Assembly: GCA_965261535.1 (NCBI GenBank)
Contig: OZ253469.1
Location: 2,924,099-2,988,098, forward strand
Direction: 5' to 3'
Origin: Candidatus Azotimanducaceae bacterium
GTDB taxonomy: Bacteria > Pseudomonadota > Gammaproteobacteria > Pseudomonadales > Azotimanducaceae
DNA: 64,000 bases
Shown here: positions 26,131 to 60,891 of the stretch, one piece after another
Layout: every line of letters starts with the position of its first letter
How positions within the stretch are numbered: the stretch's first letter is position 1
Notes under the pieces: generated by a model
What the model was told of the DNA's origin: nothing
Seen by the model: only the letters and a program-made list of their open reading frames with translations
Database searches by the model: none
Program-made: the position numbers and the translations under genes

Positions 26131-26179
26131 TCGGTTTTCGGGCACATTCGCCCGTCGAGGCGAAGCGGCGGCGTCGAGT

Positions 26180-27878: not shown

Positions 27879-27921
27879 GGCACCGCCCCTCTTGCCCGCC
27901 GCGGCGGGGAGGGGCGGTGCC
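27879..27921 (+). other. 13-bp perfect stem-loop downstream of TR
   Basis: GGCACCGCCCCTC, 17-nt loop, GAGGGGCGGTGCC. There is no trailing T-run, so it is not a canonical intrinsic terminator. Confidence 0.6.
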
Positions 27922-27977
27922 AACCTGCCATGCGATGTCGGTCGAATGCACCCAAGGAGCAGCCACATGTCCAACTG

Positions 27978-27993
27978 CGGATTTGCGATACTG
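27978..27993 (+). promoter_or_regulatory. conserved 16-mer CGGATTTGCGATACTG, 31 nt upstream of the DGR target 2 start
   Basis: Second copy of the motif at 24904..24919. Confidence 0.35.
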
Positions 27994-28023
27994 CGGTCTC
28001 TTTCGGACCCGGTCGGGGTGGTC

Positions 28024-29160: not shown

Positions 29161-29188
29161 ATCGTTACCTCCTTACGTCCTGGGGGTT

Positions 29189-29223
29189 CCAAGGGGGCGC
29201 AGCCCTGGGCGCAGCCCCCTTGG
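29189..29223 (+). other. GC-rich hairpin downstream of VR2
   Basis: Same 10-bp stem as at 26108, with the loop enlarged to 15 nt (GCAGCCCTGGGCGCA). The 29161..29282 flank is homologous to 26080..26185. Confidence 0.7.
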
Positions 29224-29552
29224 TCGGTTTTTGGGCACTTTCGCCCGCCGAGGCGAAGTGGCGGAGTCGAGGGTGACAGTGGAATGTTGCTGGAACTTTG
29301 CTCCGGCCGCGAAACAGGGCTCCTGCCGCGTCGCGTGGCGACGCAGTCGAACCTTGCCAGCGGCCGAGGCGCCGGATGGAGGCGGATGGAGCCGGTAGCA
29401 CGGCCACGTTGCGTCATGACGTCGGTTGGCCGGGCACGCCACGCGGCCCCGTCATGATGGCAGTCGTACTTGTCCGGACCGCGGCAACGAGACGGAGATT
29501 CGCAGCGTTCGCAGCATAGGGGCATTGCGGGGTCGGAAGGTCTGGATGCTCT

Positions 29553-37696: not shown

Positions 37697-37849
37697 GCGA
37701 AGTCTCCCTTTCTCGAAGAGATTCTAAGAACGCGCGCCGAGTGAGCCTGAGCATCGTGAGCCACCGCTTGCCTGAACCGAGCCACTGCTGGTATAGGGGC
37801 TTGCCCACTTGGGAGCGATTCCCGACACGGCTGCTATGGCACCGCCGGC

Positions 37850-38010
37850 GCGAACGTGACCTCGTGTACCGACAGCGCAAATGCCGGCGAAATCGACACC
37901 GCGTGCACCGGCTTCTCGTCCTCGACAGTCCAGACCCGAGACGCACCCCATGCGGAAACGGTAAGAGCCGGCGTCATCTCAAGGAGAGAAACAGGTCTCG
38001 ACCCCGTCAC
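37850..38010 (-). pseudogene. fragment of an FGE-sulfatase domain gene
   Basis: Nucleotide-level homology to 46175..46310. Translates in pieces to MGCVSGLDCR and EKPVHAVSISPAFALSVHEVTFA, with frame changes. Confidence 0.5.
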
Positions 38011-38011: not shown

Positions 38012-39394
38012 TCAGTTCGGTACCACAACGGGCACGGCTTCCACCCGCCCGTGTTCAGGCTCTCCGACTTCTCTTACAACCCTGAATCCAACAGTCAGCC
38101 CGCTGTTTCGACGGTGAGGATCCTGAGACTGATCCAAGGGAATTGCCATCCCCCAACCCCGCGGATGCCAGTTCCCCAAAGCCACCGACGGGCACTCAAG
38201 GAGGCTCTCGTAGGCACCGCCCACGTCTCTTCCGACCCAGATAAAGTTCTTCGTCACCGCGCAAGAGTGGAGGATCTCTGAGATCGAGTTGAACGCCACC
38301 CCGACCTCGTTTGTCCAGCAATGCGCAGGCCCTGGATCGCATTGGGCCGCACCCACCCCGTCGCACTTCTGAAGGTCTCGGACGCAATCGGTCGGTATCG
38401 GCCGCGCGTGTCCGGGCCGGATCGCGCGCAGTTCGCTAGCGACCTGCGTTCCGATCCAAACGGCGTACTCCCACTCGGCCGCACCAGGGAGCCTGTAGCG
38501 ACGGCCTGTCTGCTGGCTGAGCCAGTGGGCGTACTCCTCGGTGTCGCGTACGGTGACACACACGACCGGATGTTCACTGGTCTGACGATACGCGTGCGAC
38601 TTCCAGATCATGCCCGAGTTTCTTCCTGACGCGAGAGGAGTGTGGCACCCGAAGCTGGAACGCCGTTCCGCCTCCGTCTTGTAGCGAGTCGCTTTGACGA
38701 ACGCTTCGAACTGACCAACCGTTGTCGCGTGCTTCGCAACCGCGAAGCTGGCAAGCTCGACGACTTCGCACTGTTGCGCGGTTCCTTCTTCGTTGTACCT
38801 CCCGCTGTTGTAGCAGAACTGCCCGCCGGGCAGATACACCAGTTTCGGCCCGATGCCGCCGTCTGACAGTTCGTCGCCAGGCAATTCGACCGACGCTTCA
38901 ATCTGCCTCTGCGCAATCGCCCGAGCTCGTTCTCGACGCATCGTCTCTTCCCGCTGTCTCTGCGCCTCGAGTTCAGCTTCCCTCCTCGCCTGTGCCGCTT
39001 TGTCTTCCAGCCGAATGGAGAGCCTAAGCGCGGCCCGATAGTGTTCTCCCCGGCGACCGGCCAACCGCAGATAGACGTTCACGGAGTCTACGGCCGCGTC
39101 CAAAATGCCCAACTCGTCGCACAACCTCGCATGCGCGTACCAGAGTGCTGGCGGAATCGATTCGGAGTCTGGATCCATCGCCCGCAGGGCATCGAACGCG
39201 GCCAGGGCTTTGGCATGCTGGCCGTCCTCGACGCGCAACTCGAACTCGGCAATGCGCCGGTCCAATGCCAGCGGGGATGCGGAGGATTCCCCGCCGACAT
39301 CGGCGGCGCCGGCTGCGAGCGCAACCATGGCGCAGGTCGCCGCGAAGCCGGTGCGAAGCACCCTTCGAGCCGATTTCGAGTTCCGTCTCAGCAC
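38012..39394 (-). CDS. FGE-sulfatase domain protein with the shared helical N-module (no cognate VR)
   Basis: GTG start at 39394 precedes a signal-like segment. The N-module (ALWYAHARLCDELG...YLRLAGRRGEHYRAALRL) parallels the DGR targets. Contains RYRLPGAAEWEYA. The C-terminus is unrelated to the TR. Confidence 0.7.
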   Translation of the reverse strand: MLRRNSKSARRVLRTGFAATCAMVALAAGAADVGGESSASPLALDRRIAEFELRVEDGQHAKALAAFDALRAMDPDSESIPPALWYAHARLCDELGILDAAVDSVNVYLRLAGRRGEHYRAALRLSIRLEDKAAQARREAELEAQRQREETMRRERARAIAQRQIEASVELPGDELSDGGIGPKLVYLPGGQFCYNSGRYNEEGTAQQCEVVELASFAVAKHATTVGQFEAFVKATRYKTEAERRSSFGCHTPLASGRNSGMIWKSHAYRQTSEHPVVCVTVRDTEEYAHWLSQQTGRRYRLPGAAEWEYAVWIGTQVASELRAIRPGHARPIPTDCVRDLQKCDGVGAAQCDPGPAHCWTNEVGVAFNSISEILHSCAVTKNFIWVGRDVGGAYESLLECPSVALGNWHPRGWGMAIPLDQSQDPHRRNSGLTVGFRVVREVGEPEHGRVEAVPVVVPN

Positions 39395-39512
39395 GCTTTG
39401 CCCGAACGTATCGTGTACTCCGTACGCTCGAGAACGACGGCTCACCCCCTTCCTACCACCCGCTGCCAGTAACGGAGGGCAACCGCTGGCATTCTGACCG
39501 GTGCAAGCCGAC

Positions 39513-40319
39513 TCATCGTCCGTGTTCACGCCGCCAATTCTCCGACCCTGCGGGGAGAATCTCGTCCGCCGGTTGTGCCGTGCGCGACAGAGCGTCCTTG
39601 ATTCGCGACTTCCACGCTTCGGGTATCGAGAAACAGAGACCTTCTCGGCACATGCGAAGGTCAAGATCGCGCTCCACGACCTGCTCCTTGAGCCCGGGTA
39701 TGGCGTTCAAGTCGCCGGCGCTGGCTCTCAGAATCTCCAGTTGGCGCTCTTGCCTGAGTCCACGGATCTGGTTGAGGACCCCTTCCTGTTGTTCGGGAGC
39801 GAACGTGGCCGCCAGCTTGGATAGGGTTCCGACCCCAACAGCGCCTTGCGAAGTACTGACGGTCGCTTGGATCGAGGGTGCGAGCTTGAGAAGGTCGAGG
39901 TAGCGTCGCACGGTACGTGCGGTCACCCCCGTTGCCTGCGCGACGCGCCCCAAGTCTCCGCACTTGGCTCGGATGGCGTCGTACGCTTTGGCTTTGTCGA
40001 TCGGATGCATGTCGGCCCGCTGGACGTTCTCGACGAGGGACACAACCGTCGAGTCAGTGTCGCTGAGGTCGTCCCTGATCGTCGCAGGAATAGTTGCCAG
40101 TCCGAGTGCGCGGCATGCCAGCAGTCGTCGCTGACCGGCGATCAGGTCAAAGCAGCCATCGGCCGCCTCGCGCACAATGACCGGGCTAAGCACGCCTAGG
40201 TCGCGAATGCTGCTGGCAAGCTCGGCGAGCCCGGCGTCTTCCGTGCCGGCATCGAGGTCCTTGCGGGCATTGAAGTCAGACACCCGAATCGACTCAAGGG
40301 TGAGTTCGGTGGTCTCCAA
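39513..40319 (-). CDS. ParB/Srx N-terminal domain (ParB-like nuclease) protein
   Basis: Contains IRVSDFNARKDL, GVLSPVIVRE, DLIAGQRRLLACRALG and ENVQRADMHP, typical of the ParB N-domain. Confidence 0.8.
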   Translation of the reverse strand: METTELTLESIRVSDFNARKDLDAGTEDAGLAELASSIRDLGVLSPVIVREAADGCFDLIAGQRRLLACRALGLATIPATIRDDLSDTDSTVVSLVENVQRADMHPIDKAKAYDAIRAKCGDLGRVAQATGVTARTVRRYLDLLKLAPSIQATVSTSQGAVGVGTLSKLAATFAPEQQEGVLNQIRGLRQERQLEILRASAGDLNAIPGLKEQVVERDLDLRMCREGLCFSIPEAWKSRIKDALSRTAQPADEILPAGSENWRREHGR

Positions 40320-40540: not shown

Positions 40541-43507
40541 ATGACCAGGGAAGGCGACTCGACGCAGGCTGACAAACTTCGGCAACTGGAGCACATCGCG
40601 TATCCGGAAGCGCTCCGGTGCCGCGAGGAGCAACTGGTCGCCAACCGTCACAGAAAGGCGGGCGAGAAGGCGCTCGAGCGACGCGAACCTCAAGTAGGCC
40701 TCGCTCTCTCCGGGGGAGGCATCCGGAGCGCCACTTTCGCGCTCGGGGTGCTTCAGGCGATCGCCAAGCGCAGAGCGCTGCAGCAAGTCGACCTGCTCTC
40801 GACCGTATCCGGGGGCGGCTACACCGGCGGGATGCTCACCCGTCTCTTCTCCAGGAAAGAGGTCCACGGCGTCCACGACGTAGAGAACGCCATCCTGGCG
40901 CCCTGGGAGCGGCGCGAGCCGGACGATCCCAATGCCAAGACCATCGAGCCCGGCGCCGTGCTGGCGTGGCTTCGGGAGAACGGCCACCACCTTGCGCCCA
41001 ACGGGGCGGGAGACCTGCTCCTCGGCGGAGCGGTCATCTTCCGCAACTGGCTCTCCGTGCTCGTCGTGCTCGCGACCCTCGTTCTTACCGGATTCGTCCT
41101 GATGCAACTGGCGCGCCACGGCGTTCCGTTCATCGACTTCGCCATGCCAGGTTGCGGCGGCCCGGTCGCGGCCGCGGCAACGGGCTTCGAAGCGTGGCTG
41201 ACCTGCCATTTGCCCCTCGGCGGGGAATACGTGTGGTGGAGCCCATGGGTGGCCCTGCCCTTCCTCGTCTTCGTCCTCTGGGTCGCACCATGCGGCTTGG
41301 CCTACTGGCTGATGCCCGGAACGGCCGGGACCAGGCTGGCCGTCGCGGGGAGATTGTTCGGAGTGCTGGTCCTGCTTGGCGCATCAGCCTGGGGCCTGCA
41401 CGTCACCGGGACACCGTCCGCATGGGCAATCGGACTGGTCTTCGGTGTAGCGCTGTTCGCGTTCATCGTGTACGACATTGCTGACCACGCACTCCGACGC
41501 AAGCAGTGCTCTGAGGCGTCGAAGCGGCTTGAGTTGAGCCACCGTCTCTCCTCGTGGCTGAAGCGCGCCCTGCTGGCGTTCGCCGCGGTCACGGCCCTCG
41601 CCGTCCTGGATACGCTTGGGCAGACGCTCTACACGGTCGCCATCGATCCCGACATCCGCATGGGCGCCGTCATCGGCGGGGCGTTGAGTGCCGTGGCGGC
41701 GCTGGCTGTCGGTGGCCGAAGGCTCGCCGTCCGATTCCGTGGCGACGGGGACCCGGCCCGACCCCGTTTGCCACTCAAGGTGACGGCGAGCGCCGTTACG
41801 GCGCTCGTTCTGATCGCGACGCTCGCACCTCTTAACGCGCTATCACACGCCATCGCCTGGAACCTCGACTATCCGGCTGGCGTGCCCGCCGACCTCTGGA
41901 CTTCGGCGACGGTCGAGTCACGATGTCCGCCGGTCCTGCGACGTTGTCCCGATTCCGCAGCGTCAGATCTGGTCAGCTGCCCGGTCGCATGTCCGGAGGT
42001 CGGGAAGCCAGCCCTTGCGAGCGCAGGAATCTACTTCGTGCTACTGGCACTCCTTTCTTTCGTCTTCGGCCATGCCCGCCGGTTCCTGAACGACTCGACG
42101 CTGCAGCCCCTCTATCGGGCACGCATCATCCGGGCCTACCTCGGCGCCTCCAACCCCAGGCGCCTCGACAGACGCCACCCCAAGCCCGTCACCAGAATGC
42201 TCCACGGAGACGACGCGGCTGTCGACTGGGATCGTGGAAGCGAACTCGCTGAGGACGAGGAGAACCCACTGAAGAAGTACGACCATGGGGCTCCCCTGCA
42301 CATCGTCAACGTGACCGTCAACGAGACGGCGGAGAAGAAGACAGGGATCCAGCGAAACGATCGCGGCGGCATCGGCATGGCGGTAGGCCCCGCCGGGATC
42401 AGTGCGGGCGTTCGCCACCACGTGGTGTTCCACGCGTCGGCGGACAGCAACGGGTTGCTGGCACAGGTGTTCCCCGACGCCGGGGACAAGCATGCCTTCC
42501 GGATGTTCGACTACGCGGACGCCGCGGAGTCTTCCGGTCAGGAGACGACGGCGCGCTATCGCGGCGAGTCGCTTACCCTGGGCCAGTGGATCGGCATTTC
42601 CGGCGCTGCTTTCTCGACGGGTGTCGGGTCGCGGACGAGCTTCCCGCTCTCCTTCCTGGCAGGCATCCTGAACGTGCGCCTCGGATACTGGTGGGACTCC
42701 GGGATCGGGCGTGGATCCCGCCTCCTGCCCAAGTTATCCAAAGGGGACGACCAGACGGCAGATGGTTCTAGCAGCGACGGGCTTGCATCGAGGACGTTCG
42801 CCACCCTGTTCCCCGTGCAGAGCTATCTCCTCGACGAGCTGTTCGCACGGTTTCGCGGTGTGCACCGACCACGGTGGAATCTCTCCGACGGCGGCCATTT
42901 CGAGAACCTGGGCGCATACGAGCTGATCCGACGCCGCGTGCCCCTGATCGTGATCGTCGACGCGGAGGCCGACCCCGACTATCGCTTCGAGGGGCTCGGG
43001 AACCTGGTGCGCAAGGCCCGGGTGGACTTCGGCGCGAAGATCACGTTTCTCGATCCCCAACAGGTTGGGCGCCTGGCGAGCGACAACGCCTGGATGACAT
43101 ACTACGGTTCGCTGGACATGCTGCGCCGGGATGCTAGGGATAACGAGGCAGGCGCAGGCGTCCATGGGCACACGCACGCGACTTCTTCTCGCGACACCGG
43201 GCGCTCACTCGCGCACGTCGCGCTGGCAACAGTCTGTTACGAGGGCGGCGATGCCGACAAGACCTCGCTGATCCTATACCTCAAGCCCACACTGGTGGGA
43301 GACGAACCCGTGGACATCACCCACTATCACGAGGCCAACCCGGCGTTCCCGCAGCAGACGACCAAGGACCAGTTCTTCGACGAAGCGCAGTGGGAGAGCT
43401 ACCGGAAACTCGGAGAGATCGTGGGGTTGCGCTCGATACCGGAGAGCGGCGGGTTTGAGTCGGTCCGCAAGCTGACAAGGCCACTCAACCAGGATCCGGA
43501 GGCCTAG
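40541..43507 (+). CDS. patatin-like phospholipase with a large internal multi-pass membrane region
   Basis: 988 aa. Oxyanion motif LSGGGIRSA and Ser motif STVSGGGY lie near the N-terminus. The catalytic Asp motif SDGGHFENLG lies about 690 aa later. Several hydrophobic helices sit in between. Confidence 0.75.
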   Translation: MTREGDSTQADKLRQLEHIAYPEALRCREEQLVANRHRKAGEKALERREPQVGLALSGGGIRSATFALGVLQAIAKRRALQQVDLLSTVSGGGYTGGMLTRLFSRKEVHGVHDVENAILAPWERREPDDPNAKTIEPGAVLAWLRENGHHLAPNGAGDLLLGGAVIFRNWLSVLVVLATLVLTGFVLMQLARHGVPFIDFAMPGCGGPVAAAATGFEAWLTCHLPLGGEYVWWSPWVALPFLVFVLWVAPCGLAYWLMPGTAGTRLAVAGRLFGVLVLLGASAWGLHVTGTPSAWAIGLVFGVALFAFIVYDIADHALRRKQCSEASKRLELSHRLSSWLKRALLAFAAVTALAVLDTLGQTLYTVAIDPDIRMGAVIGGALSAVAALAVGGRRLAVRFRGDGDPARPRLPLKVTASAVTALVLIATLAPLNALSHAIAWNLDYPAGVPADLWTSATVESRCPPVLRRCPDSAASDLVSCPVACPEVGKPALASAGIYFVLLALLSFVFGHARRFLNDSTLQPLYRARIIRAYLGASNPRRLDRRHPKPVTRMLHGDDAAVDWDRGSELAEDEENPLKKYDHGAPLHIVNVTVNETAEKKTGIQRNDRGGIGMAVGPAGISAGVRHHVVFHASADSNGLLAQVFPDAGDKHAFRMFDYADAAESSGQETTARYRGESLTLGQWIGISGAAFSTGVGSRTSFPLSFLAGILNVRLGYWWDSGIGRGSRLLPKLSKGDDQTADGSSSDGLASRTFATLFPVQSYLLDELFARFRGVHRPRWNLSDGGHFENLGAYELIRRRVPLIVIVDAEADPDYRFEGLGNLVRKARVDFGAKITFLDPQQVGRLASDNAWMTYYGSLDMLRRDARDNEAGAGVHGHTHATSSRDTGRSLAHVALATVCYEGGDADKTSLILYLKPTLVGDEPVDITHYHEANPAFPQQTTKDQFFDEAQWESYRKLGEIVGLRSIPESGGFESVRKLTRPLNQDPEA

Positions 43508-45262
43508 CCCGGATTTCTCACCAAGGGAGTTGAACAAAGGCCGCGTTCTGGGCGTAAATGTATGTTGGGACAAGCATTTACGGACACCGGAGACGCGGCC
43601 TTATGGGAACGGAGTGTAGCGCATCGCAACTGGAGTTTGGAGGTCTTGGGAAGCGCGCGGTGGTGGGTGTTTTCGACGGCGGCGAGATTGCGACGGACGG
43701 CGGCGGGCTGGCGTTGCGGGAGTTGGAGGAACGGGTCGGGATACTGAAGCGTCTGGGCGGGTGTTTTTCGGACCACCGCGATCCACGGCGCATCGAGCAC
43801 CGCGTGGAGACGTTGGTGAAGCAGCGCGTGCTGGGCATCTGTCTGGGGTACGAGGATCTGAACGATCACGACGAGTTGTGCCGAGACCGGCTGCTGGCGC
43901 TGCTGTGCGACTGCGAGGATGTGGCGGGCGCACGCCGCCAGCGGGAGACGGACCGCGGCAAGCCGCTGGCTGGCAAGAGCACGCTGAACCGGTTGGAACT
44001 GACGCTGGCGGCGGACGCCGCGGCGCATCGCTACAAGAAGATCGTGGCGGATATGGCGGCGATGGACGCGTTGCTGGTGGAGACGTTCCTGGAGGCGCAC
44101 GAGACGCCGCCGGCGCGCATTGTGCTGGATGTCGACGCCACCGATGACACCTTGCACGGCATGCAGGAAGGGCGCCATTTCCACGGTCATTACGACAGCT
44201 ACTGCTACCTGCCGCTGTATGTCTTCTGCGGCGAGCACCTGCTGTGCGCGCGGCTGCGCTCGGCGTCGGTCGACGGCGCGGCGGGCACGGTTGCGGAACT
44301 CGACCGGATCGCCGCGTCGATCCGCGCGCGCTGGCCGGCGACGCGCGTCGTGGTGCGCGGCGACGGCGGCTTTTGCCGCGAGGACCTCATGGCGTGGTGC
44401 GAGACGACCGGCGTGGATTACGTACTCGGGCTGCCGGTCAACTCGCGCTTGACGGGCATGGTCGCGGCGACGCTGTACGAGACGCGCGTCATGGCCGAAA
44501 TGACGGGCGAGACAACGCGGCGCTTCGACGCGCTGCGCTACGCGGCGCGCAGTTGGTCGCGGTCGCGGCGCGTAGTGGCGCGCGTGGAGCACTCCGCGCT
44601 CGGCCCCAACCCGCGCTTCGTGGTGACCAGCATCGCGACCGAGGCGATGGACGAACAGGCCTTGTACGAGAACCTCTACTGCGCGCGCGGCGACATGGAG
44701 AACCGCATCAAGGAACAGCAACTCGACCTGTTCGCCGACCGCACCAGCACGGCCACGATGCACGCCAACCAACTGCGCCTGTACTTCGCCTCGTTCGCCT
44801 ATGTGCTGATGCAGACGCTGCGTCGCGTCGGACTCGCCGGAACGCGGCTGGCCAAGGCGCAGTGCGGCACGATTCGCGACAAGCTGCTCAAGGTCGGCGT
44901 GCGGGTGCGCGTCAGCGTGCGCCGCATCAAGTTGTCCTTCTCCGAGTCCTGGCCACGCGCCGCACTGTTCCGACAGATCCTGTACAACCTCCAGGCCATG
45001 CCATTGCGTTGTTGACGCAACGCTCGGTTCTCCGACTTTTCGCCGCCACTGGCATCTCGCCAGCGGTTGTACCTGTCCGGCAACTTTGGCGGCGCCCAGC
45101 CCAACACCCCAATGGCCCTTGGCGCCACCCGAATTCTCCTTTTTTCGACCTTTTGCACGCCAACCCACCGGCTGTGAACGCAATGTCACGAGTTCCCCGA
45201 ACATTCGCCGTCCGTTCCGACGTCGTTCGGGCATCATTCGTCGCATTGGTGAGAAATGCGGG
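43508..45262 (+). mobile_element. IS1380-family insertion sequence, apparently intact
   Basis: Terminal inverted repeats CCCGGATTTCTCACCAA and CCCGCATTTCTCACCAA (revcomp of the right end) match at 16/17. Flanked by a 4-bp direct repeat CTAG (43504..43507 and 45263..45266). Confidence 0.85.
43558..45015 (+). CDS. IS1380-family DDE transposase
   Basis: Contains FDGGEIATDGGGLALRELEERVGIL, LGYEDLNDHDEL and a DDE-type body. Alternative start at 43603. Confidence 0.85.
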   Translation: MYVGTSIYGHRRRGLMGTECSASQLEFGGLGKRAVVGVFDGGEIATDGGGLALRELEERVGILKRLGGCFSDHRDPRRIEHRVETLVKQRVLGICLGYEDLNDHDELCRDRLLALLCDCEDVAGARRQRETDRGKPLAGKSTLNRLELTLAADAAAHRYKKIVADMAAMDALLVETFLEAHETPPARIVLDVDATDDTLHGMQEGRHFHGHYDSYCYLPLYVFCGEHLLCARLRSASVDGAAGTVAELDRIAASIRARWPATRVVVRGDGGFCREDLMAWCETTGVDYVLGLPVNSRLTGMVAATLYETRVMAEMTGETTRRFDALRYAARSWSRSRRVVARVEHSALGPNPRFVVTSIATEAMDEQALYENLYCARGDMENRIKEQQLDLFADRTSTATMHANQLRLYFASFAYVLMQTLRRVGLAGTRLAKAQCGTIRDKLLKVGVRVRVSVRRIKLSFSESWPRAALFRQILYNLQAMPLRC

Positions 45263-45552
45263 CTAGTAGGCCGGACGAAGAACGAAACGCGTGATCGCGA
45301 ACGCTACTTCTCGCTGAAGACCACCAGGGCCGGAGTCGAGGCCGCCGGTCGAGCCCCCGCGCCGTACTCGACCGCCCGCGTCGTTCCGGCCACCACGATG
45401 CCATCGTTCTCCCGCGAGGCTGTCGTCCGCCCACGGTCCCTTCCACAGGGCTGCCCCTGTCGTGTGCGCCCGGTCCGGCCGCCGCCCCGCGTCCGGCACC
45501 GGCGCCCCGTGCGGTCCCTCAGTCATGAGCGCCGACTCGCCAAATCCCGCCG

Positions 45553-45576
45553 CCAAGGGGGGCAAGCCCCCCTTGG
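45553..45576 (-). other. GC-rich hairpin downstream of VR3
   Basis: CCAAGGGGGG-cttg-CCCCCCTTGG on the minus strand. Same position as the VR1 and VR2 hairpins. One stem pair is changed on both sides. Confidence 0.7.
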
Positions 45577-45607
45577 AACCCCCCACAGGAGGTAAGGACG
45601 TAACGAC

Positions 45608-46969
45608 TCAAGGGGTGAGCGTCCGGGCCACACGGAACCCGATGAAGTAGTCGCGGTAGTCGGCGGAGTGCCTGAGGCGGTACGCGGCGCGGAGGGACCT
45701 CGGGAAGAGGTACCAGGAGCCGCCGCGCAACACGGGCAGGACACAGTCCCGCTGCAGCCAGGCGCTGCCATCCGACGGGGCGTCTGTATAGCTGCCGTTC
45801 CAGCAGTCCGCCACCCACTCCCACACGTTCCCGTGCATGTCGTGCAGCCCGAATGCGTTCGGAGCAAACGAGCCTGCGGGAGCGGTTCGGTCAGCGTCCC
45901 ATCGGCTACCGCAGCCACTGCAATGCGCCCGGTTCACGCCGATCTCGTTGCCCCAACTGTACCTCGTCGTGCTCCCCGCCCGTGCCGCGTACTCCCACTC
46001 CGCCTCGCTCGGCAAACGGTACTCCTCCTCCGTCTCGCGGGACAGCCACGACACGTAGGATTGCGCATCCTCCCAGCTCACGTTGATCACGGGGCGATTG
46101 GCACGCCCCCAGCCTTCGTCGTCTGGTCGATAGCCCCCGCACCCGCCTCGCGCGACGCACCCGTCCCACTGCGCTAACGTCACTTCGTGCACCGAAAGCG
46201 CGAATGCCCGCCGAATCGACACCGCATGCACCGGCTTCTCGTCATCGCGACAGTCCAGACCCGTCACGCAACCCATCCGGAACCGGCCCGCTGGGACCAC
46301 CACCATCTCGGGGCCCTCGCCACCCGAACGCAGCGCGTCGCGGAATACCGTGCCGGGCGCGCCGGCGGTCGGCGCCGCCCGCGGCGCGGGCGTGGATGGC
46401 TGCCGTCCGGCGGCGCGCGGTTGCGGGGGATCGGCGGCCGGTGCGTCGCCCGCCGCAGCGGTGGGCGCGAAGGTGTAGTCGACGGACCACCTCGAGAATC
46501 CGGGCGTGTCGGTGTGGAACGCGACGACCGAGAGCGTCTCGGTCAACGTCTCCCCGGGGCGCACGGATATGGGGTCGGCGCTGCGCTGGATGTGGCCGGC
46601 CGGGTCCGCCCACCGCGCGCCCGCCGCCCCGTCCCAGTTGGTGCAGGGCGGCTAGGGCGCGTCGATCTGGTAGCGGGCGATGAGGTGGTTCAGGGGCTGC
46701 CCGGAGTCGTTGCGCACCGAGAACTCGAGCTCCCACAGATGCAGGGGCTGGCCGTCGTTGGCCTTGATCTGCTCGTAGACCTGCTCCGAGTGATGAGCCT
46801 CCAGCACGCGGCAGGTTGCCGCGCCGTACTCGACCAGCCGCGCCGTCCCGGCCAGCACGATGCCGTCCTTCTCCAGCAACTGCTCCGCGCGGCTGCCGAC
46901 GGCGGCGAGGACCAGCACCGGCAGAACTGTGCTGGCGGCCCGGCACGCGGCGCGCTGTCGTCCGCCCAT
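45608..46969 (-). pseudogene. DGR variable protein 3 (FGE-sulfatase domain) with an in-frame TAG
   Basis: ORFs 46652..47065 and 45608..46564 are in the same frame, separated only by the TAG at 46652..46654. Start at 46969 (MGGRQRAACRAASTVLPVLVLAAVG) follows GGAGGGA. C-terminal VR3. Confidence 0.8.
45616..45735 (-). repeat. DGR variable repeat VR3 (remote, opposite strand)
   Basis: The reverse complement is collinear with the TR. By hand alignment there are 28 mismatches, 18 of them at TR adenines. Carries the same GCCCGGACGCTC 3-prime end as VR1 and VR2. Confidence 0.8.
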
Positions 46970-50506: not shown

Positions 50507-53500
50507 TCATCGTGACGCCGGCAAGCTTACCTGTTCGTCCGCGCCGAACACGCGCAGCCGCCGGTTGCCTTCCAGCACCGTGAAGTCCCCGATCCGGTTG
50601 CCGCCCGCGTCCAGCCGGACCAGGTCAGACAGCACGGCCAGTGGCGCAACGTCCGTCACACGGTTGTCGCGCACATCCAGAGTAGCCAGCCGCCGCAATC
50701 CCGCCAGCGGCCCGATATCGGCCACGGCGTTGCCGTCGAGGCGCAGCGTCCTCAGTTCCGCCAGGCGGACAACCGGACCGAGATCGGCGATCCGGTTGTT
50801 GCCGAGGTCGAGCACCTGCAGGCCCGTCAGCGACGACAGGGCCTCGACGTCGGACAGGTCGTTGCCCCGCACCGACAGGTCCCGCAGGCCGGTCAGTCCC
50901 GAGAGCACCCACGGATCCGATACGGCGCCGTCGAGGTTGAGCGACCCAAGCGCCGGCAGCGATCCCAGCGGACGCAGGTCCGCGATCGCGTTCAAGCCGA
51001 GATCGAGGCCTTCCAGATTCACCGCCTGCTCCAGACCCGTCAGGTCCCGCACGCCCGCGTCGCGCGCGTCCAGTACCGTCAGCGCCGCCAGCTCGTGCAC
51101 ACCGATCACCGCACCCGGCGCCTTGCCCAGCGCCGCACCAATGCGCAACCGCAGACCCGCGTCCGGGAGCGATACCGGCGGTCCCGGGTCCGTCCCCGGA
51201 ACTCCCTCGGCGCGGTTCGTCAGCACCAACTCGGGAAGCACGCCGCCGACGCGCCGCAGACCCGGCACCGCGTACGCGTACAGCTTGCGGTCCGTGCCGT
51301 CCAACACCCACAGCGTCTCACCGTCCGACCACAGACCCTGCGGATTGCCGTTGCCCGACGATCCCGTGGCAATGTCCCGATCCCGCTGCCGTGCGCCGTT
51401 CGACAGACGGTAGGCGTACACCTGGCCGCGCCGGTACCACGACACCAGTACCGTCGCACCGTCCGACCACAGTCCCCAAGGCCAACCCGTCTTCACATCG
51501 CCGCTGCGGAACCCGAACTCTTCACCCGTCAACCGCGCGCCGTCCGACACACCGTAGGCATACAGGTGCCCATCGCCGTTGTCCGCCACCCACAGCGTCG
51601 TGCCATCCGACCACAGTCCGGCCGGACGGTTGTTGCCCGCCTCGGTCAGCGTCTCAAGGTCCAGGTCCGCCGCCGCGGCCCGCGCACCGTCCGACAGCCG
51701 ATGCGCCAGAACACCCCCGTAATAGTCCGCCACCCACAGCGTCACACCGTCCGACCACAGCCCCGACTGCGAACTGTCCGGGCCAATATCCAGGTCCCGG
51801 TCCGCCAGCCGTCGACCGTCCGACAGCGCGTAGGCCCGCACCACCTCGTAGCGGTCCGTCACCCAGACCGTCTCCCCGTCCGACCACACACCCGACGGCG
51901 CCGACGTGTCCGTCACGGCGATGTCCCGGTCCGGCAGCCGCGTGCCCCACGCCGGCAGCGCTGCCCGCGTCACCGTCACCGCGTACGTCCGACTGGTTTC
52001 ACCGTCCTCCGCCGTCACCTGCGCCGCGATCTCGTTCGCGCCCTCGGCAAGCGTTGATGTCCGCTCCGTCCCCAGCGTGCTGCCCGCCGCGTCCGTCAGC
52101 TCCACGCTCGCATTCGCATCCGTCGGCGTCGCTGCCACCGTCGTTGTCCCGATCTCGTGTGACACCTCCGCCGCGTACGCCGTCACCTCGCTGTCGAAAC
52201 TTCCGATGTCCACGTCCGTCAGGCTCAGCTCCGACAGGCTTGCATCGTCCGACGGCACGTCGCTCGCCCCGATCGTCACCTCCGCCGAGCCCAGCTCCGT
52301 GCCGTCCAGACTCGCCGTCACCGTCGCCGTCTCGGCCTCTTCATGCTCCGCGTCGTCCGTCGCCGTCACCGCGTCCTCGCCCGCTGCCAGCGTCAGACTC
52401 GCCGCCGTCAGCGTGTAGTCCGACTCCGATGCGCCCGTCACGCTCAACTCGACCGTCTGCTCCTCCGCATATGTCACACCGTTCGTGATCGACACCGTCA
52501 CCGTCGACGTGCCGCCTTCGTCGATCTCGGCAGGCTCGGCCGCTACCCCGAACGTGCCCTCGTCGTCGTCCGTCACCGTCACCGTCGCCGAGGCCGGCGT
52601 GCCGAGCTCGTATCCAGCACCCGCCAGCAGTTCGACCGTCAGCGCGCCATCCGCTTCGTTCACCGTGTCGTCGTCCGTCGCCAGCGTCAGCGTCGCGCTC
52701 AGCGCCCCCGCCGTCACCGTCACCGTCGACGGCGGCCCCGACACCAGCACCGAAGCCTCGTCCGTCACCGACACGGATACCGCGAGCTCCTCGCGTAGCG
52801 CCGCGTCCACCGTCACCGTGTACTCCGCCGCGCTGCCTTCCGTCACCGACTCCGCAACGGCCGCGATCGACACCGCCGGCACCGACGCCGTACTGCGAAT
52901 CGACAGCGCCACCCGCACCCCGTCCGACGCACCGTGCCAGTAGCGTCCGTACTCGCTGCTTGGCTGCGTCGCCGCCGTCTCCCAGTAGCGCTCGCCGATC
53001 AGGGTCGTCTCCTCGAAGCCGCGCATTCCGTAGCCGTTCCAGTACACCGTCAGCCCTGCCGTTCCCGTCAGGTGCGGGCTCGTGCCAAGCACGAAACGGC
53101 CCTGATTGTTCACCGCCGCGGTGGTCACCGTGTAGCGCGTACCGCCGACCTCGAAGTCGCCCCCCGTCAGCGAGCCAAAACGCTCATCCCAGAAATGGCC
53201 GTAGCCCGCGATGTCCAGCAGCAACCCGTCCGCCGCTTCCAGGGTCAATACCGTACCCAGCAACTCCTCTTCGCCACCGGTCAACGGCGGGTTCGCCGGC
53301 GCCTCCCATACCGGGTCCGTCGCCGCGCTGGTGCGTGACACCGCGCGCCGCGTCGCCCGCACCGACAGCGCAACGTCCGAGGCCGTCGGCGCGTAGCTCA
53401 AGTCCGTCGCACCGGCAATATCTTCCTCGTCGCGCAGCCACTGGACCGTCACGTCCGACTGCGGCGCTTCCGCGAAACTCGCCTCGAGCGTTCCGCCCAC

Positions 53501-54235
53501 CTGCGCAATGCCGGCGATCACGGGCTCCGGCGGCAGTGCCGGATCCGTGATCGCGACGCTCACCGAACCGACCGCCGAACCGTCCAGCGTCGCTTCGATC
53601 AGCGCCGTCTCCGGCTCCTCCGAAACACCGTCCGCCGTCGCCGTCAGCGTCGCCGTCACCGCGGCCTCGCCCGCCGCCAGCGGCAGGGCTGTCGGCGTCA
53701 GCGCGTAGTCCTCTCCCGACAACCCCGTCGCCGTCAGCAGGATCGACTGGTCCTCGGCGTACGTCACGCCGTTCGTCACCGCCACCGTCACCGCCGCTTC
53801 GTCCCCTTCCTCGATCTCGGAAGGCTCCGCCGTCACCTCGAAGACACCCGCGTCGTCGTCCTCCACCGTCACGGTGGCCGATACATCGTTGCCGAGCGCG
53901 TAGCCATCGCCCGCCAGCAGCGTCGTCGTCACGAACCCGTCACCTTCCACCACCGCGTCGTCTTGCGTCGCCACGCTGAGCGTCGCCGCAGTCGCACCCG
54001 CCGCGATCAGCACCGACTCCGGCGGCTCGCCCGACAGCATCGAGCCGTCTTCCGACACATCCACCGACACCGTCAGCGACCAGGCCGCCGCCGCGCTGCG
54101 CGTCACCGTGAACGCCGCCGCCGAACCCTCCGTCACCGACGCCGCGACACCCGCAATCGACACCTCCGGCTTCGGCGGACCCGCCACCGTCGCCGTCGCT
54201 CTGTTCGACAGCGCCGCGCCCGCCGCCGTGCACAC
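50507..54235 (-). CDS. giant surface protein, C-terminal part: Calx-beta, cadherin-like domain, WSDG-repeat region, leucine-rich repeats
   Basis: Contains Calx-beta-like units (SVTEGSAA.FTVT...TVTV.DDD) and a cadherin-like unit (DASLSELSLTDVDIGSFDSEVTAYAAEV). About 7 repeats of LWSDG.T.WV....Y precede the C-terminal LRRs (LxxLxLxxNxIxDLxPL). Confidence 0.75.
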   Translation of the reverse strand: MCTAAGAALSNRATATVAGPPKPEVSIAGVAASVTEGSAAAFTVTRSAAAAWSLTVSVDVSEDGSMLSGEPPESVLIAAGATAATLSVATQDDAVVEGDGFVTTTLLAGDGYALGNDVSATVTVEDDDAGVFEVTAEPSEIEEGDEAAVTVAVTNGVTYAEDQSILLTATGLSGEDYALTPTALPLAAGEAAVTATLTATADGVSEEPETALIEATLDGSAVGSVSVAITDPALPPEPVIAGIAQVGGTLEASFAEAPQSDVTVQWLRDEEDIAGATDLSYAPTASDVALSVRATRRAVSRTSAATDPVWEAPANPPLTGGEEELLGTVLTLEAADGLLLDIAGYGHFWDERFGSLTGGDFEVGGTRYTVTTAAVNNQGRFVLGTSPHLTGTAGLTVYWNGYGMRGFEETTLIGERYWETAATQPSSEYGRYWHGASDGVRVALSIRSTASVPAVSIAAVAESVTEGSAAEYTVTVDAALREELAVSVSVTDEASVLVSGPPSTVTVTAGALSATLTLATDDDTVNEADGALTVELLAGAGYELGTPASATVTVTDDDEGTFGVAAEPAEIDEGGTSTVTVSITNGVTYAEEQTVELSVTGASESDYTLTAASLTLAAGEDAVTATDDAEHEEAETATVTASLDGTELGSAEVTIGASDVPSDDASLSELSLTDVDIGSFDSEVTAYAAEVSHEIGTTTVAATPTDANASVELTDAAGSTLGTERTSTLAEGANEIAAQVTAEDGETSRTYAVTVTRAALPAWGTRLPDRDIAVTDTSAPSGVWSDGETVWVTDRYEVVRAYALSDGRRLADRDLDIGPDSSQSGLWSDGVTLWVADYYGGVLAHRLSDGARAAAADLDLETLTEAGNNRPAGLWSDGTTLWVADNGDGHLYAYGVSDGARLTGEEFGFRSGDVKTGWPWGLWSDGATVLVSWYRRGQVYAYRLSNGARQRDRDIATGSSGNGNPQGLWSDGETLWVLDGTDRKLYAYAVPGLRRVGGVLPELVLTNRAEGVPGTDPGPPVSLPDAGLRLRIGAALGKAPGAVIGVHELAALTVLDARDAGVRDLTGLEQAVNLEGLDLGLNAIADLRPLGSLPALGSLNLDGAVSDPWVLSGLTGLRDLSVRGNDLSDVEALSSLTGLQVLDLGNNRIADLGPVVRLAELRTLRLDGNAVADIGPLAGLRRLATLDVRDNRVTDVAPLAVLSDLVRLDAGGNRIGDFTVLEGNRRLRVFGADEQVSLPASR

Positions 54236-54324
54236 CGCCCCCGCGCCGAACAGTCGGATCGCGCCGGCAGAACGATCTCCAGGTCGCCCGCGCCCGTCGG
54301 CTCGACGCTGATGCGCCAGGCGAT

Positions 54325-57321
54325 CTAGCTCGGCGGCGACAGCTGCCGCGCACCGCGCACCACACCGTTGGTCACCTCGAAGCTCGCGTCCCGCAGCGTC
54401 ACGCCGCTGAGCTCCACCTCCTCGCTGAAACGCAGGTCAAACGTGAACTCCGTCGCGCCGTCGTGCGCATCCGGAATGTTCTCCAACGCCGCCGTCAGCG
54501 GCGCTGCGCCCGACTCGATCGACAACGACACCGACCCTACTTCAGCGCCGTTGTGGAATGCCCGTACCGTCACCGTCTCCGCCTCGTCCTCGACCTTGTC
54601 CCGCAACGCTGCGAGCGGCGCCACCGCGGAACGCGCGTAGGCCGCCAGCACCGTCTCGGACGGCAAACTGTAGTCCTCGCCCGCCGCCGCACTCCCGCTG
54701 GCCGTCAGCGTGATCGTCTGGTCCGTCGCGAACGTCACCCCGTTCGTGGTCGAGACATCGATCGCCACGGACGCGCCCTCCGCAACCTGCGACGGCGCCG
54801 TCACCGCAAACTCCGCCACATCGTTGTCCGCCAGCACCGTCTGTGCCGTGCCCGACTCCGCCGATACCCCGTAGCCCTCGCCCGCCAGCACCGTGCGCAC
54901 CACCGTCACCGCCTCGCGCACCACCCGGTCGTCCGTCAGGCCCAGCAGCAGCAGCGCCTCGCGCCGCTGCCCCAGGTTCACCGTGTGGCTCCGGTAACGC
55001 TCCTCGCCGCCGCTCACCGTCAGCTCCAGGTTCGCAGTCAGGGCGCCGAACGCCTGGATGCCGGTGCGCGACACCGTGAACGCGATCCGGTCGCCCTCCG
55101 CCCCGCTCGCCGATGCCGACGACACCGACACCTCCGGCACCCGCGCATCCGCCCCGGCCGTCACCGTGCCCACCAGGCCGTGCGACAGGCCACGCCCGTC
55201 CGCCGTGCACACCGCCCCGGCCGCCGCGCAGTCGGTCGCCGCCGGCAGCGTAACCACGATGTCTTGTGCCGCCGTCGGATCGACGACGACGTTCCACAGG
55301 TCGGAGCGTCTGTCCACGCGGTTCGCCAGCGTCACCTGCCCGTGCGTCACCCCGAAACCGGCATCGCGCAGCGTCCTGTTGCCTGTCGCGATCGGCTCGC
55401 TGAACCGCACCCGCAGCGCGAATGGCACCCCCGAGTGCGACGCCGGCAGCCCCACGAAACTCGCCGTCAGCGGCGGAAACACGCGCACCACCGTTACCGC
55501 GTACGTGCGAACCGTCTCACCGCCCTCGACGGCCACCTCGATCGAGATCTCGTTCGAACCCTGCACCAGCGCCACCTGGTGACCCGCCGTGTCGGCGTCC
55601 GCGTCGGCCGGCGTGATCGTCACCTCCGCGTTGGCGTCGCTGGCCGTCGCCTCCACCGTCGTCGTTGCCACACTCCGGTCCACACTCGCCTGGTAGCTCG
55701 TCGTCTCCGCCGAGAACGTGCCAATGTCGACATCCGCCAGACTCAGGCCCGACAACGTGGCGTCGCTTGACGGCGGCGGCGCCGTACCCGGTGACCCCCC
55801 ACGCGTCACGCGGAACGAACCGGCACCCTCCGGTGTCCTGGCGTACGCCTCGTCTCGGGCCAGCCCCGGGAAGTCCACCGCGTCGATCACGGCGTTCCCG
55901 TTGTCCTCCGTATCGGACAGCACCACGCTCTCTCCGCTGGCCGAGAGCTTGAAGTTCGCGTGCAGGCCGGGACTGTCGCCGGAGTCGTCGTCCGCCCACA
56001 CCAGCAGCCGGCCGCCGGCCCCGATCGATGTGCCTTCCGGGAATTGCCACTTCTTTGGCCTATCACGCCTGTCCGACAGATACATGCCGGACAGGTCGAT
56101 TGCCGACGCGGTCGTGTTGAACAGCTCGATCCAATCGTCATACTCGCCTTGCGGATCCGCCACGGTATTGCCGTTCGACGCCATCAACTCGTTTATCACC
56201 ACCGCGGCCGCGGCCGGATTCGCATCGTCGTCGCGTACGGTCAGGCTCGCGCTGCCTGGCGATGCCACCACGTAGCCATGGCCGCTCGCGAGCGTCACCG
56301 TCAGCAGGCCGTTCGGCTCATCCACTGTGTCGTTCGGGATCTGGATGCCAAGCAACGCCTCGCTCGCGCCCGCGGGCACGGTCGTCGATGTCGGCAGGGA
56401 GGCCGGCAGGTAGTCCTGGTCCCTGCCTTGGGTGACCTGCACGCCCACTACCAGATCCCCGCTCGGTGGCGGCGCCGCACTTATCGTGAGCGTCGCCGTG
56501 CCCCCCTCGGTGACCGGTCCGTCCGCGGCGATCGCGATCTCCGGGACAATCGGAGTCGCGCGCCCCGGCGAGGCGACAGCGGGCACGCTGAACGCGCCGC
56601 TCGCTTCAGGCGAGCGGCCGTATGACACGTCCGTGGCGAGTGCGGGGAAGTCGACGCTGTCGATCACCACGTTGTCACGGGCGTCGATATCCGACAGCAC
56701 GACGCTCTCGCCGCCTGCCGAGAGCTTGAAATTCGTGTGTAGTCCAGGACTGTCGCCGGAGTCGTCGTCGGCCCACACCAGCAGATAGCCGCCCGCCGCG
56801 ATCGCCGTGCCCTCCGGGAACTGCCACTTCAGCGGGTTGGTCGCCTTGTCCGAAAGGTACATCCCCGACAGATCGATCGCGTCGGTGCCCCAGTTCAGCA
56901 GTTCGATCCAGTCGTCGTCGTCCCCCTGGGGATCCTCGATCGTCCCACCATTGGACGCCATCAGTTCGTTGATGACGAGCGTGGTGGGAGTCGTGCCCGC
57001 GTCCACTTCGGCGTCCGATTGCTCGGCGGCGGTCAAGGTGTACGTGAAGAGGTAGCGTGGCAGATCGTCGGCGTAGGCGGACACACGCGCGGTGAATACG
57101 CCATCGCCCGCCGTGGCGTCGGCGTCCTCGCCGGCGTCCCCCATGGCAACCGACGTGAACTCGCCGCTCGACCCGGCGTGTTGCACGGTGGCGGCGGTCA
57201 CGGCGCGTGCCGCAGCCGCTTCCACGCTCATCGCCAACGCAATCACGGCCAGACATGGCATCGTCGCCGACCGCAGCGCGTGGCGGCCGAATGTCCCACG
57301 CCAAAGCGTCAGTACACCCAT
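54325..57321 (-). CDS. giant surface protein, N-terminal part: signal peptide, two lamin-tail domains, Calx-beta and cadherin-like units
   Basis: LTD signature occurs twice (VINELMASNG...DDWIEL.N...IDLSGMYLSD...KWQFPEGT...LLVWADDDSGDSPGLH.NFKLS). Alternative start at 57261 (MPCLAVIALAMSVEA). Ends at an in-frame TAG. Confidence 0.75.
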   Translation of the reverse strand: MGVLTLWRGTFGRHALRSATMPCLAVIALAMSVEAAAARAVTAATVQHAGSSGEFTSVAMGDAGEDADATAGDGVFTARVSAYADDLPRYLFTYTLTAAEQSDAEVDAGTTPTTLVINELMASNGGTIEDPQGDDDDWIELLNWGTDAIDLSGMYLSDKATNPLKWQFPEGTAIAAGGYLLVWADDDSGDSPGLHTNFKLSAGGESVVLSDIDARDNVVIDSVDFPALATDVSYGRSPEASGAFSVPAVASPGRATPIVPEIAIAADGPVTEGGTATLTISAAPPPSGDLVVGVQVTQGRDQDYLPASLPTSTTVPAGASEALLGIQIPNDTVDEPNGLLTVTLASGHGYVVASPGSASLTVRDDDANPAAAAVVINELMASNGNTVADPQGEYDDWIELFNTTASAIDLSGMYLSDRRDRPKKWQFPEGTSIGAGGRLLVWADDDSGDSPGLHANFKLSASGESVVLSDTEDNGNAVIDAVDFPGLARDEAYARTPEGAGSFRVTRGGSPGTAPPPSSDATLSGLSLADVDIGTFSAETTSYQASVDRSVATTTVEATASDANAEVTITPADADADTAGHQVALVQGSNEISIEVAVEGGETVRTYAVTVVRVFPPLTASFVGLPASHSGVPFALRVRFSEPIATGNRTLRDAGFGVTHGQVTLANRVDRRSDLWNVVVDPTAAQDIVVTLPAATDCAAAGAVCTADGRGLSHGLVGTVTAGADARVPEVSVSSASASGAEGDRIAFTVSRTGIQAFGALTANLELTVSGGEERYRSHTVNLGQRREALLLLGLTDDRVVREAVTVVRTVLAGEGYGVSAESGTAQTVLADNDVAEFAVTAPSQVAEGASVAIDVSTTNGVTFATDQTITLTASGSAAAGEDYSLPSETVLAAYARSAVAPLAALRDKVEDEAETVTVRAFHNGAEVGSVSLSIESGAAPLTAALENIPDAHDGATEFTFDLRFSEEVELSGVTLRDASFEVTNGVVRGARQLSPPS

Positions 57322-59645: not shown

Positions 59646-60085
59646 TCGAGCGTCGGTGTCTTGCGACCGAGGACTTTCAGCCCCGCACGGCCGTCGAGCG
59701 GCGCGAAGTCCGTGATGCGGTTGCCGCCGCGGTCGAGTTCCTCGAGCCGCGTCAGGGACGCGAGCGCCGCCAGCTCGTGCGCGCCGATCACCGCCCCCGG
59801 CGTCTGGCCCAGCACCGCCTCCACGTGGCCCCGCAGAGCCGCGTCCGCAACCGACTCCGCCGGCCCCGGGTCCGAACCCGGTGCCGACACCGCCCGACTC
59901 TGCAGCGTCAACCCAAGGCCCCGCCCCGTCAACGACGACGGCTTCAACAGCCCCGGCACCGCGTACGCAAACAGCGTACGTTCCTCCTCGTCCGCTACCC
60001 ACAACGTCTCACCGTCCGACCACAGGCCGAACGGCCTCATGTCCTCCATATGCCCTCCGGTCGGGCGCCGCGTGAACTCCGCCAA
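59642..60085 (-). pseudogene. 5-prime-truncated paralog fragment of the WSDG-repeat/LRR protein
   Basis: GLWSDGETLWVADEEERTLFAYAVPGL...AVIGAHELAAL...GGNRITDFAPL parallels the C-terminus of 50507..54235, with most LRRs missing. Abuts the transposase remnant. Confidence 0.5.
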
Positions 60086-60319
60086 CGCGATACCGATCTA
60101 CTCGTACCCTTTGCGCATGCATTCGATCAAGGCAACAACTTTCGAGTGATTGTCATAGGCAATCGGCTGTCGGTCAACGGTCGCATGGGCGTTCTGTCCG
60201 TCGCACGGAAGTTCCCACTCCGGGGGCTGGGGTGCGGACGCGCGGGGCGCTGGGTGGGGGCCGGCAAGACGATGAGGCGGGCGGCTATGGATGCGAACGC
60301 GTCGGGGTTTTGGCCGTGA

Positions 60320-60891
60320 GCCCAGTGGGCTGTCAGTGCCCGCTACGCGGTCGGCTGGATGGTCGCCGACCGGGAGAACTCGGTGCTGGCCAGTCATCTC
60401 ATCGAAGAAACCTGCCACAAACAGAGGGTGTCCAGCCCCAGGTGCTCACCCTGCACTCCGACCGCGGCGCGCCAATGACCAGCAAGTGCACCGCACAACT
60501 GCTCGCCGATCTCGGCGTGACCCGCTCACTGAGCCGCCCCCAGGTGTCCGACGACAATCCGTTCTCCGAGGCGCAGTTCAAGACCCTGAAGTACCACCCC
60601 GGCTTCCCTGGCCGCTTCCACGACATCACCGCCGCGATCGCCTTCTGCCGCACGTTCTTCCCCTGGTACAACACCGAGCATCGCCATGGCGGGATTGCGA
60701 TGCTCACCCCGGACGACGTCCATCATCATCGAACCGAAAGCGTGCTGGACCAGCGCGGGCGCACCCTTCAAGCCGCCTGGACCCGTCATCCCGAACGCTT
60801 CGTTCGAGGCATCCCAAAAACCAGACCCCTTCCCGAAGCGGTCTGGATCAATCCACCCGTGACATCCACGACCGGAGACACTGCTCAGTAA
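60320..60891 (+). mobile_element. remnant of an IS3-type (rve/integrase-core) transposase, 5-prime truncated and frameshifted
   Basis: AVGWMVADRENSVLASHLIEE is in one frame. LTLHSDRGAPMTS...DDNPFSEAQFKTLKYHPGFP...WYNTEHRHGGIAMLTP is in ORF 60232..60891. No orfA and no terminal repeats were seen. Confidence 0.7.

Follow-up and report, generated by a model that had tools for sequence, protein, structure and literature searches.

Positions 46969..45608 on the minus strand of a 64,000-nucleotide stretch of contig OZ253469.1 from a Candidatus Azotimanducaceae bacterium (the window, here and throughout; GC content, 65.6%) form one continuous reading frame, broken by a single in-frame TAG codon, that encodes an FGE-sulfatase-domain protein. 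The 3′ end of this gene, T3, carries a variable repeat (VR3) of a diversity-generating retroelement (DGR). A DGR, here cassette A, lies at 24.8 to 29.2 kb of the window in the order VWA-domain gene, target T1 with VR1 and a hairpin, bAvd-family accessory gene (26084..26587), reverse transcriptase (RT) gene, template repeat (TR), and target T2 with VR2 and a hairpin. T1 (24859..26079) and T2 (27964..29160), both on the plus strand, end in VR1 (25950..26071), a clean cognate of the local TR, and VR2 (29031..29152), respectively. The plus strand also holds the RT gene (26588..27672), which occupies two frames split by a 41-nt insertion, and the TR (27683..27804), which is 122 nt long, contains 29 adenines, and is rich in AAC. 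Between cassette A and T3 lie an integrase, an NYN gene, a reprolysin-like peptidase, ParB, a patatin gene, and an insertion sequence (IS). An earlier note on this DNA had rightly placed T3 beyond such unrelated cargo and had taken VR3 to be a third cognate repeat of the local TR, 18 kb away on the opposite strand. Here, we consider which TR templated VR3 and what has become of T3, drawing on the related loci L012 (the closest relative found) and L004 and on the metagenome contigs L010 and L011.

With the adenines of the local TR masked, an ungapped scan of the window returned exactly three VR-like matches, VR1, VR2, and VR3, and no others. VR3 (45616..45737, minus strand) makes up the last ~40 codons of T3 and is collinear with the TR over 122 nt. 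It differs from the TR at 18 of the 29 adenines and at 12 of the 93 other bases (Fisher p = 5.3e-7); the figure of 18 agrees with the earlier count, and the total is 30 rather than the 28 then given. The differences in this collinear repeat are thus concentrated at TR adenines, as in DGR VRs generally. Its setting is likewise that of a DGR target: the repeat is C-terminal in an ORF of CLec/FGE-sulfatase fold, and the TR adenines fall at codon positions 1 and 2, in AAC codons. Third codon positions mismatch between VR3 and the TR at only 4 of 29 sites; for T3 against T1/T2, the figure in the remainder of the FGE domain is 38 to 40% (binomial p = 0.003). The strong bias toward adenine sites, together with this low third-position mismatch, indicates that a TR of this family served as the template for the VR3 tract at some time after the divergence of the genes. 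VR3 is therefore a genuine DGR variable repeat in an FGE-domain gene, as had been proposed.

The end of VR3 conforms to the same anatomy. The 3′ end GGCCCGGACGCTC is common to VR1, VR2, and VR3, and its counterpart in the TR is GGCCCGCACGCTC. All three VRs terminate in GGCCCGGACGCTCAC, versus GGCCCGCACGCTCAA in the TR, which is the classical arrangement of an initiation-of-mutagenic-homing site (IMH) in the VR and a distinct IMH* in the TR. In VR3, the IMH-like end (GGGTTCCGTGTGGCCCGGACGCTCA) occupies 45616..45640 on the minus strand and has G where the TR has C (GCCCGCACGC), as do the other VRs; it is identical to the ends of VR1 and of the VR in L010, which belongs to a second DGR (DGR2, below), and the G/C difference recurs in L004 and L010. 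Just 3′ of the IMH, at 45553..45576 (minus strand), is a GC-rich hairpin/cruciform of cassette-B type (see below), with a 10-bp stem (CCAAGGGGGG/CCCCCCTTGG), a CTTG loop, and z = −2.5. A GC-rich hairpin follows each VR of the window and is conserved in L004 and L012. The shared VR end and the downstream hairpin that the earlier note had pointed out are thus both borne out.

The TAG codon divides T3 into two parts. The first (46655..46969, minus strand; 105 codons; source gene call P0001) consists of a signal-peptide-like start and a conserved N-domain of unknown function, which has no Pfam match. Its homologues P0002-P0004 and P0006, one of them from Candidatus Palauibacter, are 47 to 49% identical. 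The TAG (46652..46654, minus strand) lies 318 nt into the ORF in the context ..YQIDAP*PPCTNW.., and the four homologues align straight across it with Trp in three and His in one. Because Trp occupies this column in three of four homologues, the stop can be accounted for by one TGG>TAG transition, which adds a probable origin to the earlier description of T3 as one frame except for this codon. The second part (45608..46651, minus strand) comprises a linker and a complete FGE-sulfatase (CLec-fold) domain at ~45623..46315, and ends in TGA at 45608..45610. The domain matches Pfam PF03781 over profile positions 2 to 255 of 255 (E = 9.9e-60) and is 68 to 70% identical in amino acid sequence to those of T1 and T2. 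Mismatches between T3 and T1/T2 amount to 0.16 to 0.19 at codon positions 1 and 2 and 0.38 to 0.40 at position 3. This is a signature of past purifying selection, and the TAG must therefore be either a recent lesion or a base error. As it stands, T3 is not an uninterrupted ORF from its start codon to the end of its domain but breaks at the TAG, where the source annotation also divides it into P0001 (105 aa) and P0005 (318 aa). Readthrough by TAG reassignment or pyrrolysine was ruled out: several long ORFs of the window with high GC content at third codon positions end in TAG, which is therefore an ordinary stop there, and the window is without tRNA genes.

The sequence downstream of VR3 points away from cassette A. 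L012 is syntenic with the window and 87.6% identical in nucleotide sequence (L012 8259..12803 versus window 24871..29411), and directly downstream of T2 it carries a convergent cassette B composed of a target with its VR, avd, a frameshifted RT gene, a TR (TRb), and a second target with its VR. Over the stretch from stop codon to hairpin end, the VR3 3′ flank matches L012 cassette B at 58 of 63 positions (92%) without gaps, versus 46 of 59 (78%) and four gap columns for cassette A. The flank shares with cassette B the features CTGTGGGGGG, the loop CTTG/CTGG, an 8-nt deletion, and CTGAGGGACCG. The ~100 nt beyond the hairpin are 70% identical to L012 cassette B, versus 53% to cassette A, and read as the 5′ end of avd. 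This remnant of a second avd (45443..45545, minus strand) ends in ..CCTGTGG, has an internal deletion of ~24 nt, and encodes RPDRAHTTGAAL where Avd has RPDRARSTGAAL. The B-specific indels and the avd remnant indicate that VR3 was part of another DGR. A survey of DGRs assigned targets by A-to-N differences only, with minor exceptions, and required that a target lie outside any other DGR (PMC5758913); with its cassette-B-type flank and avd remnant, VR3 falls inside another.

In L012, the RT gene of cassette B (14881..15850, minus strand) likewise breaks into two frames, at about residue 165. RT frameshifts are a recurrent form of decay among the cassettes of this family.

The non-adenine positions of VR3 discriminate among candidate templates. 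We took the hypervariable tract as index 25 to 93 of the repeat and treated index 95 onward as IMH or ambiguous. Within the tract, VR1 has no non-A mismatch to the local TR and VR3 has four, at index 33, 60, 77, and 84. Over its whole length, VR3 has 12 non-A mismatches, beyond what an A-to-N rule with minor exceptions would admit. Nine of the 12 lie at third codon positions, a pattern expected of drift or of another template but not of RT error. At each of the four discordant positions in the tract, TRb of L012 cassette B agrees with VR3, and its only non-A difference there is at index 25. The L004 TR fits at three of the four, two identically and one through an L004 adenine, and leaves VR3 with one non-A mismatch in the tract. 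The L004 and local TRs differ at seven of 122 positions. At six of these seven, VR1 and VR2 have the state of the local TR, and at index 95, where VR1 has A and VR2 has T, both fit a template adenine, as in L004. VR3 agrees with L004 at four of the seven, and two others are adenines in L004. A change of AAC to AGC at index 95 of the local TR after the last homing of any VR was considered and withdrawn, because AGC is likewise present in the TR of cassette A of L012.

Cassette A itself, as assembled, lacks a functional RT. Its RT fragments match bRT (PDB 8ub7) in different frames, at residues 23 to 168 (E = 7e-26) and 181 to 314 (E = 4e-12). The cause is an insertion of exactly 41 nt (27157..27197, plus strand), AT-richer than the genome. 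With ..RRRGLP on one side and IGNLTSQ on the other, it displaces the reading frame past motif 3, ahead of the IGNLTSQ motif. The insertion site is a palindrome, CCGAT|CGG, and the added sequence creates an 11-bp inverted repeat (CCGATTCTGTT/AACAGAATCGG). Intact relatives of the RT occur in L012 (95% aa identity), L010 (85%), and L004 (82%), and in the alignment the insertion is absent from all three. A repeated mobile element was ruled out as its source, as the 41 nt have no second copy in the window or in the loci retrieved. With programmed frameshifting or bypass across the insertion in mind, the sequence was read by eye (no scan was run) and showed neither a canonical slippery heptamer nor matched take-off and landing codons. 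The source annotation records only a 194-aa C-terminal fragment of this RT (P0253), and the local DGR is left with no intact cognate RT.

Several further features of cassette A and its TR were recorded. In its hypervariable tract, VR2 has six non-A mismatches to the local TR, which none of five TRs examined explains, and the loop of its hairpin contains a 12-nt duplication. After this hairpin, at 29207..29283, is a 77-nt copy (90% identity) of the post-VR1/avd 5′ region; in L012, T2 is followed by the same avd′ stub. Each TR has downstream of it ~115 nt that show strong conservation from cassette to cassette and from genome to genome (..GCGCCACGGCGCC..GAGCGTCCAGGGAGGGTCATG..), at 27805..27920 (plus strand) of the window, at 11207..11320 and 14630..14742 (minus strand) of L012, at 11207..11320 of L010, and in L004. 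This element ends in a terminator-like hairpin (CCGCCCCTC..GAGGGGCGG) and probably represents a structured region at the 3′ end of the DGR RNA. A scan of the window at Rfam gathering thresholds gave no matches, for the post-TR element or elsewhere.

A second DGR bears on the origin of VR3. A search with the repaired RT of cassette A found P0131, an intact RT of 416 aa with 85% identity, and we infer that it is carried on the source contig of the window, outside the window itself. The TR of this DGR2, TR2, was read from L010 and L011, two contigs of one metagenome that carry an identical TR and an RT identical to P0131. VR3 has six non-A mismatches to TR2 versus the 12 to the local TR, and three of the six are in the tract (index 33, 60, and 77); from index 78 to 113, TR2 matches VR3 at every non-A position. 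The L010 VR (9396..9517) differs from TR2 only at 16 adenines and at the G/C of the IMH. It differs from the L011 VR (1251..1372) at 24 sites, 21 of which are TR2 adenines, and the flanks of the two are 98.8% identical. To judge by these sequences, DGR2 looks canonical, active, and diversifying at the population level. The target in L010 is called as two ORFs (293 and 76 aa).

These comparisons do not uphold the earlier assignment of the TR at 27683..27804 as the cognate template of VR3, given four non-A mismatches in the tract against none for VR1 and a flank of cassette-B type. The earlier note had named a second TR in the genome that fits VR3 better as the observation that would overturn its assignment. 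With P0131 placed on the source contig and TR2 the better fit, such a TR appears to exist, and the assignment would fall on that ground also. With its three mismatches in the tract, TR2 is not a perfect fit either.

Taken together, the data make it probable, in our assessment, that T3 and VR3 are the orphaned target and repeat of a decayed and mostly deleted sister cassette, the target being broken by a TGG>TAG change, and that the locus reflects ordinary decay of a known system. T3 would be the surviving first module of a convergent cassette B, with the order target-VR-hairpin-avd-RT-TR and perhaps a second target, and not a remote satellite of cassette A. Its avd would break off some 30 codons in, at ~45443, whereas the RT and TR would have been lost altogether to rearrangement and cargo insertion; a partial copy of the T3 5′ end, an IS, the ParB/patatin genes, and other cargo would now stand in their place. 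VR3 would last have been rewritten by a B-type TR carrying C33, C60, A77, and C84. We infer that such a TR-B was once present at the T3 locus. The TRs of sister cassettes are ~86 to 97% identical to the local TR, and this would mainly be why VR3 shows adenine-specific differences from the latter. With the B-type template lost, VR3 would be frozen. T3 would since have acquired, or at least now carries, the nonsense codon, which appears to be a real mutation. Other traces of decay are near T3, namely the 41-nt insertion in the RT, the gene fragments at 45357..45440 and 37849..37969, and the IS.

Several observations weigh against this reading. The FGE domain of T3 is 60% identical in amino acid sequence to that of the L012 cassette B target, versus 68 to 71% to T1, T2, and their orthologues. 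The IMH and GSW codons of VR3 are of the A/DGR2 type and not of the L012 B type. An A/DGR2-type IMH next to a B-type flank indicates that cassettes have exchanged segments, so that "B" is a mosaic label. TR-B was not seen in the window, the 64 kb that were read of a 4.84-Mb genome. The four discordant tract positions are few, and three of them are G/C swaps at third codon positions that could recur by chance. The TAG could be a base-call error. VR3 and VR1 also have identical IMHs, and homing in trans from a TR that still exists is therefore mechanistically possible.

On that mechanism, VR3 would be a remote third target, working now or until recently, that the local TR supplies in trans across 18 kb and from the opposite strand; the TAG would have inactivated the gene only recently. 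We consider this improbable. The collinear 122-nt match, its strong adenine-site bias, an IMH shared with the clean cognate VR1, and the conserved hairpin all favor it, and non-adjacent targets, kilobases to megabases away, are documented in 45 of 372 DGRs, for example in Treponema denticola (PMC5758913). However, non-A-to-N differences occur in 23% of the surveyed DGRs and number at most 11 per target (PMC5758913), which VR3 exceeds with its 12; four are in the tract, where VR1 has no non-A mismatch, and three-quarters are at third codon positions. The flank of VR3 moreover belongs to another cassette, and the local RT is frameshifted. A reading of VR3 as a distant target of DGR2, the second and intact DGR of the genome, outside the window, is similarly improbable. 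Index 33, 60, and 77 remain mismatched in the tract, where DGR2's own VR in L010 has no non-A mismatch, and TR2 was read from metagenome contigs with an identical RT, not from the source genome. These points stand against the placement of the P0131 RT on the source contig, the lower number of non-A mismatches to TR2, its complete fit over index 78 to 113, and the fact that DGR2 has a VR of its own with the same IMH and looks active. A broader variant, a DGR network in which the intact RT and Avd of DGR2 would serve in trans the TR RNAs and orphaned VRs of sister cassettes that have decayed, so that VR3 would be live and the broken RT of cassette A irrelevant, seems to us less probable still. 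The ~115-nt post-TR element, the IMH, and the hairpin are shared, which makes servicing of VR3 by DGR2 mechanistically conceivable.

Whether T3 is a broken gene bears on the status of the gene alone, and an error at the TAG would be consistent with each of the template scenarios. An assembly or base-call error at the TAG, which would leave T3 as an intact 453-codon gene, is in our view unlikely but far from negligible: it is the one disruption in 1,362 nt, purifying selection is evident elsewhere in the gene, and the FGE domain is complete. Against an error, the same region contains the 41-nt RT insertion, which is not an error-type lesion, and several gene remnants, and the source gene calls are split likewise (P0001, P0005, and P0253). 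An intact, near-identical copy of T3 was found neither among 5.8 billion clustered proteins nor in JGI metagenome contigs. A scan of the JGI metagenomes with the sequence flanking the TAG, its middle base set to N, also found nothing, and no second copy of T3 turned up in any of the collections searched.

The neighborhood of T3 contains further remnants. Directly downstream and fused to the avd remnant is a decayed copy of the T3 5′ end (45357..45440, minus strand; ..ENDGIVVAGTTRAVEYGA..), from which the signal-peptide segment is deleted. Positions 45357..45415 are 86% identical to 46819..46877, in agreement with the decayed copy reported before, and 45419..45440 match the start-codon region at 21 of 22 positions, with ATG changed to GTG. 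Downstream, the relic is bounded by the IS (43495..45275, plus strand), which has a DDE_Tnp_1_4 transposase (43558..45015, E = 5e-147) and ~30-bp terminal inverted repeats and overlaps the stop codon of the patatin-like gene. Farther away, a fragment of an FGE-domain start (37849..37969, minus strand) is closest to T3 (84% aa identity over 25 residues, 86% nt). Its location and strand are those that a second target of cassette B would have, and it is possibly the remnant of that gene. Directly upstream of this fragment, a 550-aa ORF (38012..39664, minus strand) encodes a T1-like N-region (30% identity) and the first half only of an FGE domain (profile positions 3 to 126 of 255), and reads as a divergent or rearranged paralogue. 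A fourth paralogue, T4 (63366..64000, plus strand), has a TPR-like N-domain similar to that of T1/T2 and the start of an FGE domain and runs off the window end; its VR, and any further cassette, would fall just past that end.

Tyrosine-recombinase/integrase genes at 20441..21592 and 30531..31397 flank the cassette A region. In view of these flanking integrase genes and of a window in which no tRNA gene was found, the 20-to-47-kb stretch may be an island; the GC profile of the window did not delimit the cargo. A fragment at 60232..60891 reads, by inspection, like an integrase-core transposase of IS3 type. Three very large ORFs fill 50507..60008 on the minus strand, with internal DNA repeats across the region, and one of them (50507..54436) has Pfam LRR, cadherin-like, and Calx-beta domains.

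For the annotation of DGRs, the main lesson is one of caution. Sister cassettes within a genome can have nearly identical TRs, and an adenine-biased TR/VR match within a few tens of kilobases is therefore no proof of the template. Cassettes can be told apart by the non-A positions of their repeats and by the flank downstream of the VR. The data also offer a snapshot of DGR turnover in one lineage, in which one cassette has been deleted down to its target, another has had its RT broken by a 41-nt insertion, and a third remains intact and, to all appearances, active. Nothing in this calls for a new mechanism, and everything described falls within known DGR biology.

One of the closest counterparts is the DGR of Bordetella phage BPP-1 (VR in mtd; RT-Avd structure, PDB 8ub7). 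The two systems share an RT that matches bRT, a bAvd-family gene, an AAC-rich TR, adenine-specific VR differences, a VR at the 3′ end of a target of CLec fold, and a G/C difference between IMH and IMH*. They also share a GC-rich hairpin with a 3- to 4-nt loop just 3′ of the VR, a position in which a role for the hairpin has been described (PMC3240598). Unlike BPP-1, the element in the window is chromosomal and has several targets, with an FGE-sulfatase-type CLec domain instead of the Mtd tail fiber; its TR lies downstream of the RT gene and not between avd and the RT gene, its RT is broken, and VR3 is without a cassette of its own. Chromosomal DGRs with remote targets resemble this locus in having a VR-bearing FGE/CLec target kilobases from the RT and TR, on either strand, with unrelated genes between. 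VR3 differs from those targets in departing from both rules by which the survey assigned them (PMC5758913). Genomes with several related cassettes are another parallel, and ~10% of DGR-bearing complete genomes have several DGRs (PMC5758913). A TR/VR pattern scan of genome contigs returned nine loci, all from other metagenome-assembled genomes (MAGs). In L012, with cassettes A and B, and in the Pseudomonadales MAG OY282519.1, with four dispersed matches, paralogous target-avd-RT-TR cassettes likewise coexist, with TRs close in sequence to the local one, the conserved post-TR element, and frequent RT frameshifts. Unlike those genomes, the window keeps only the target-VR-hairpin-avd′ stub of its second cassette, and the target carries a nonsense codon.

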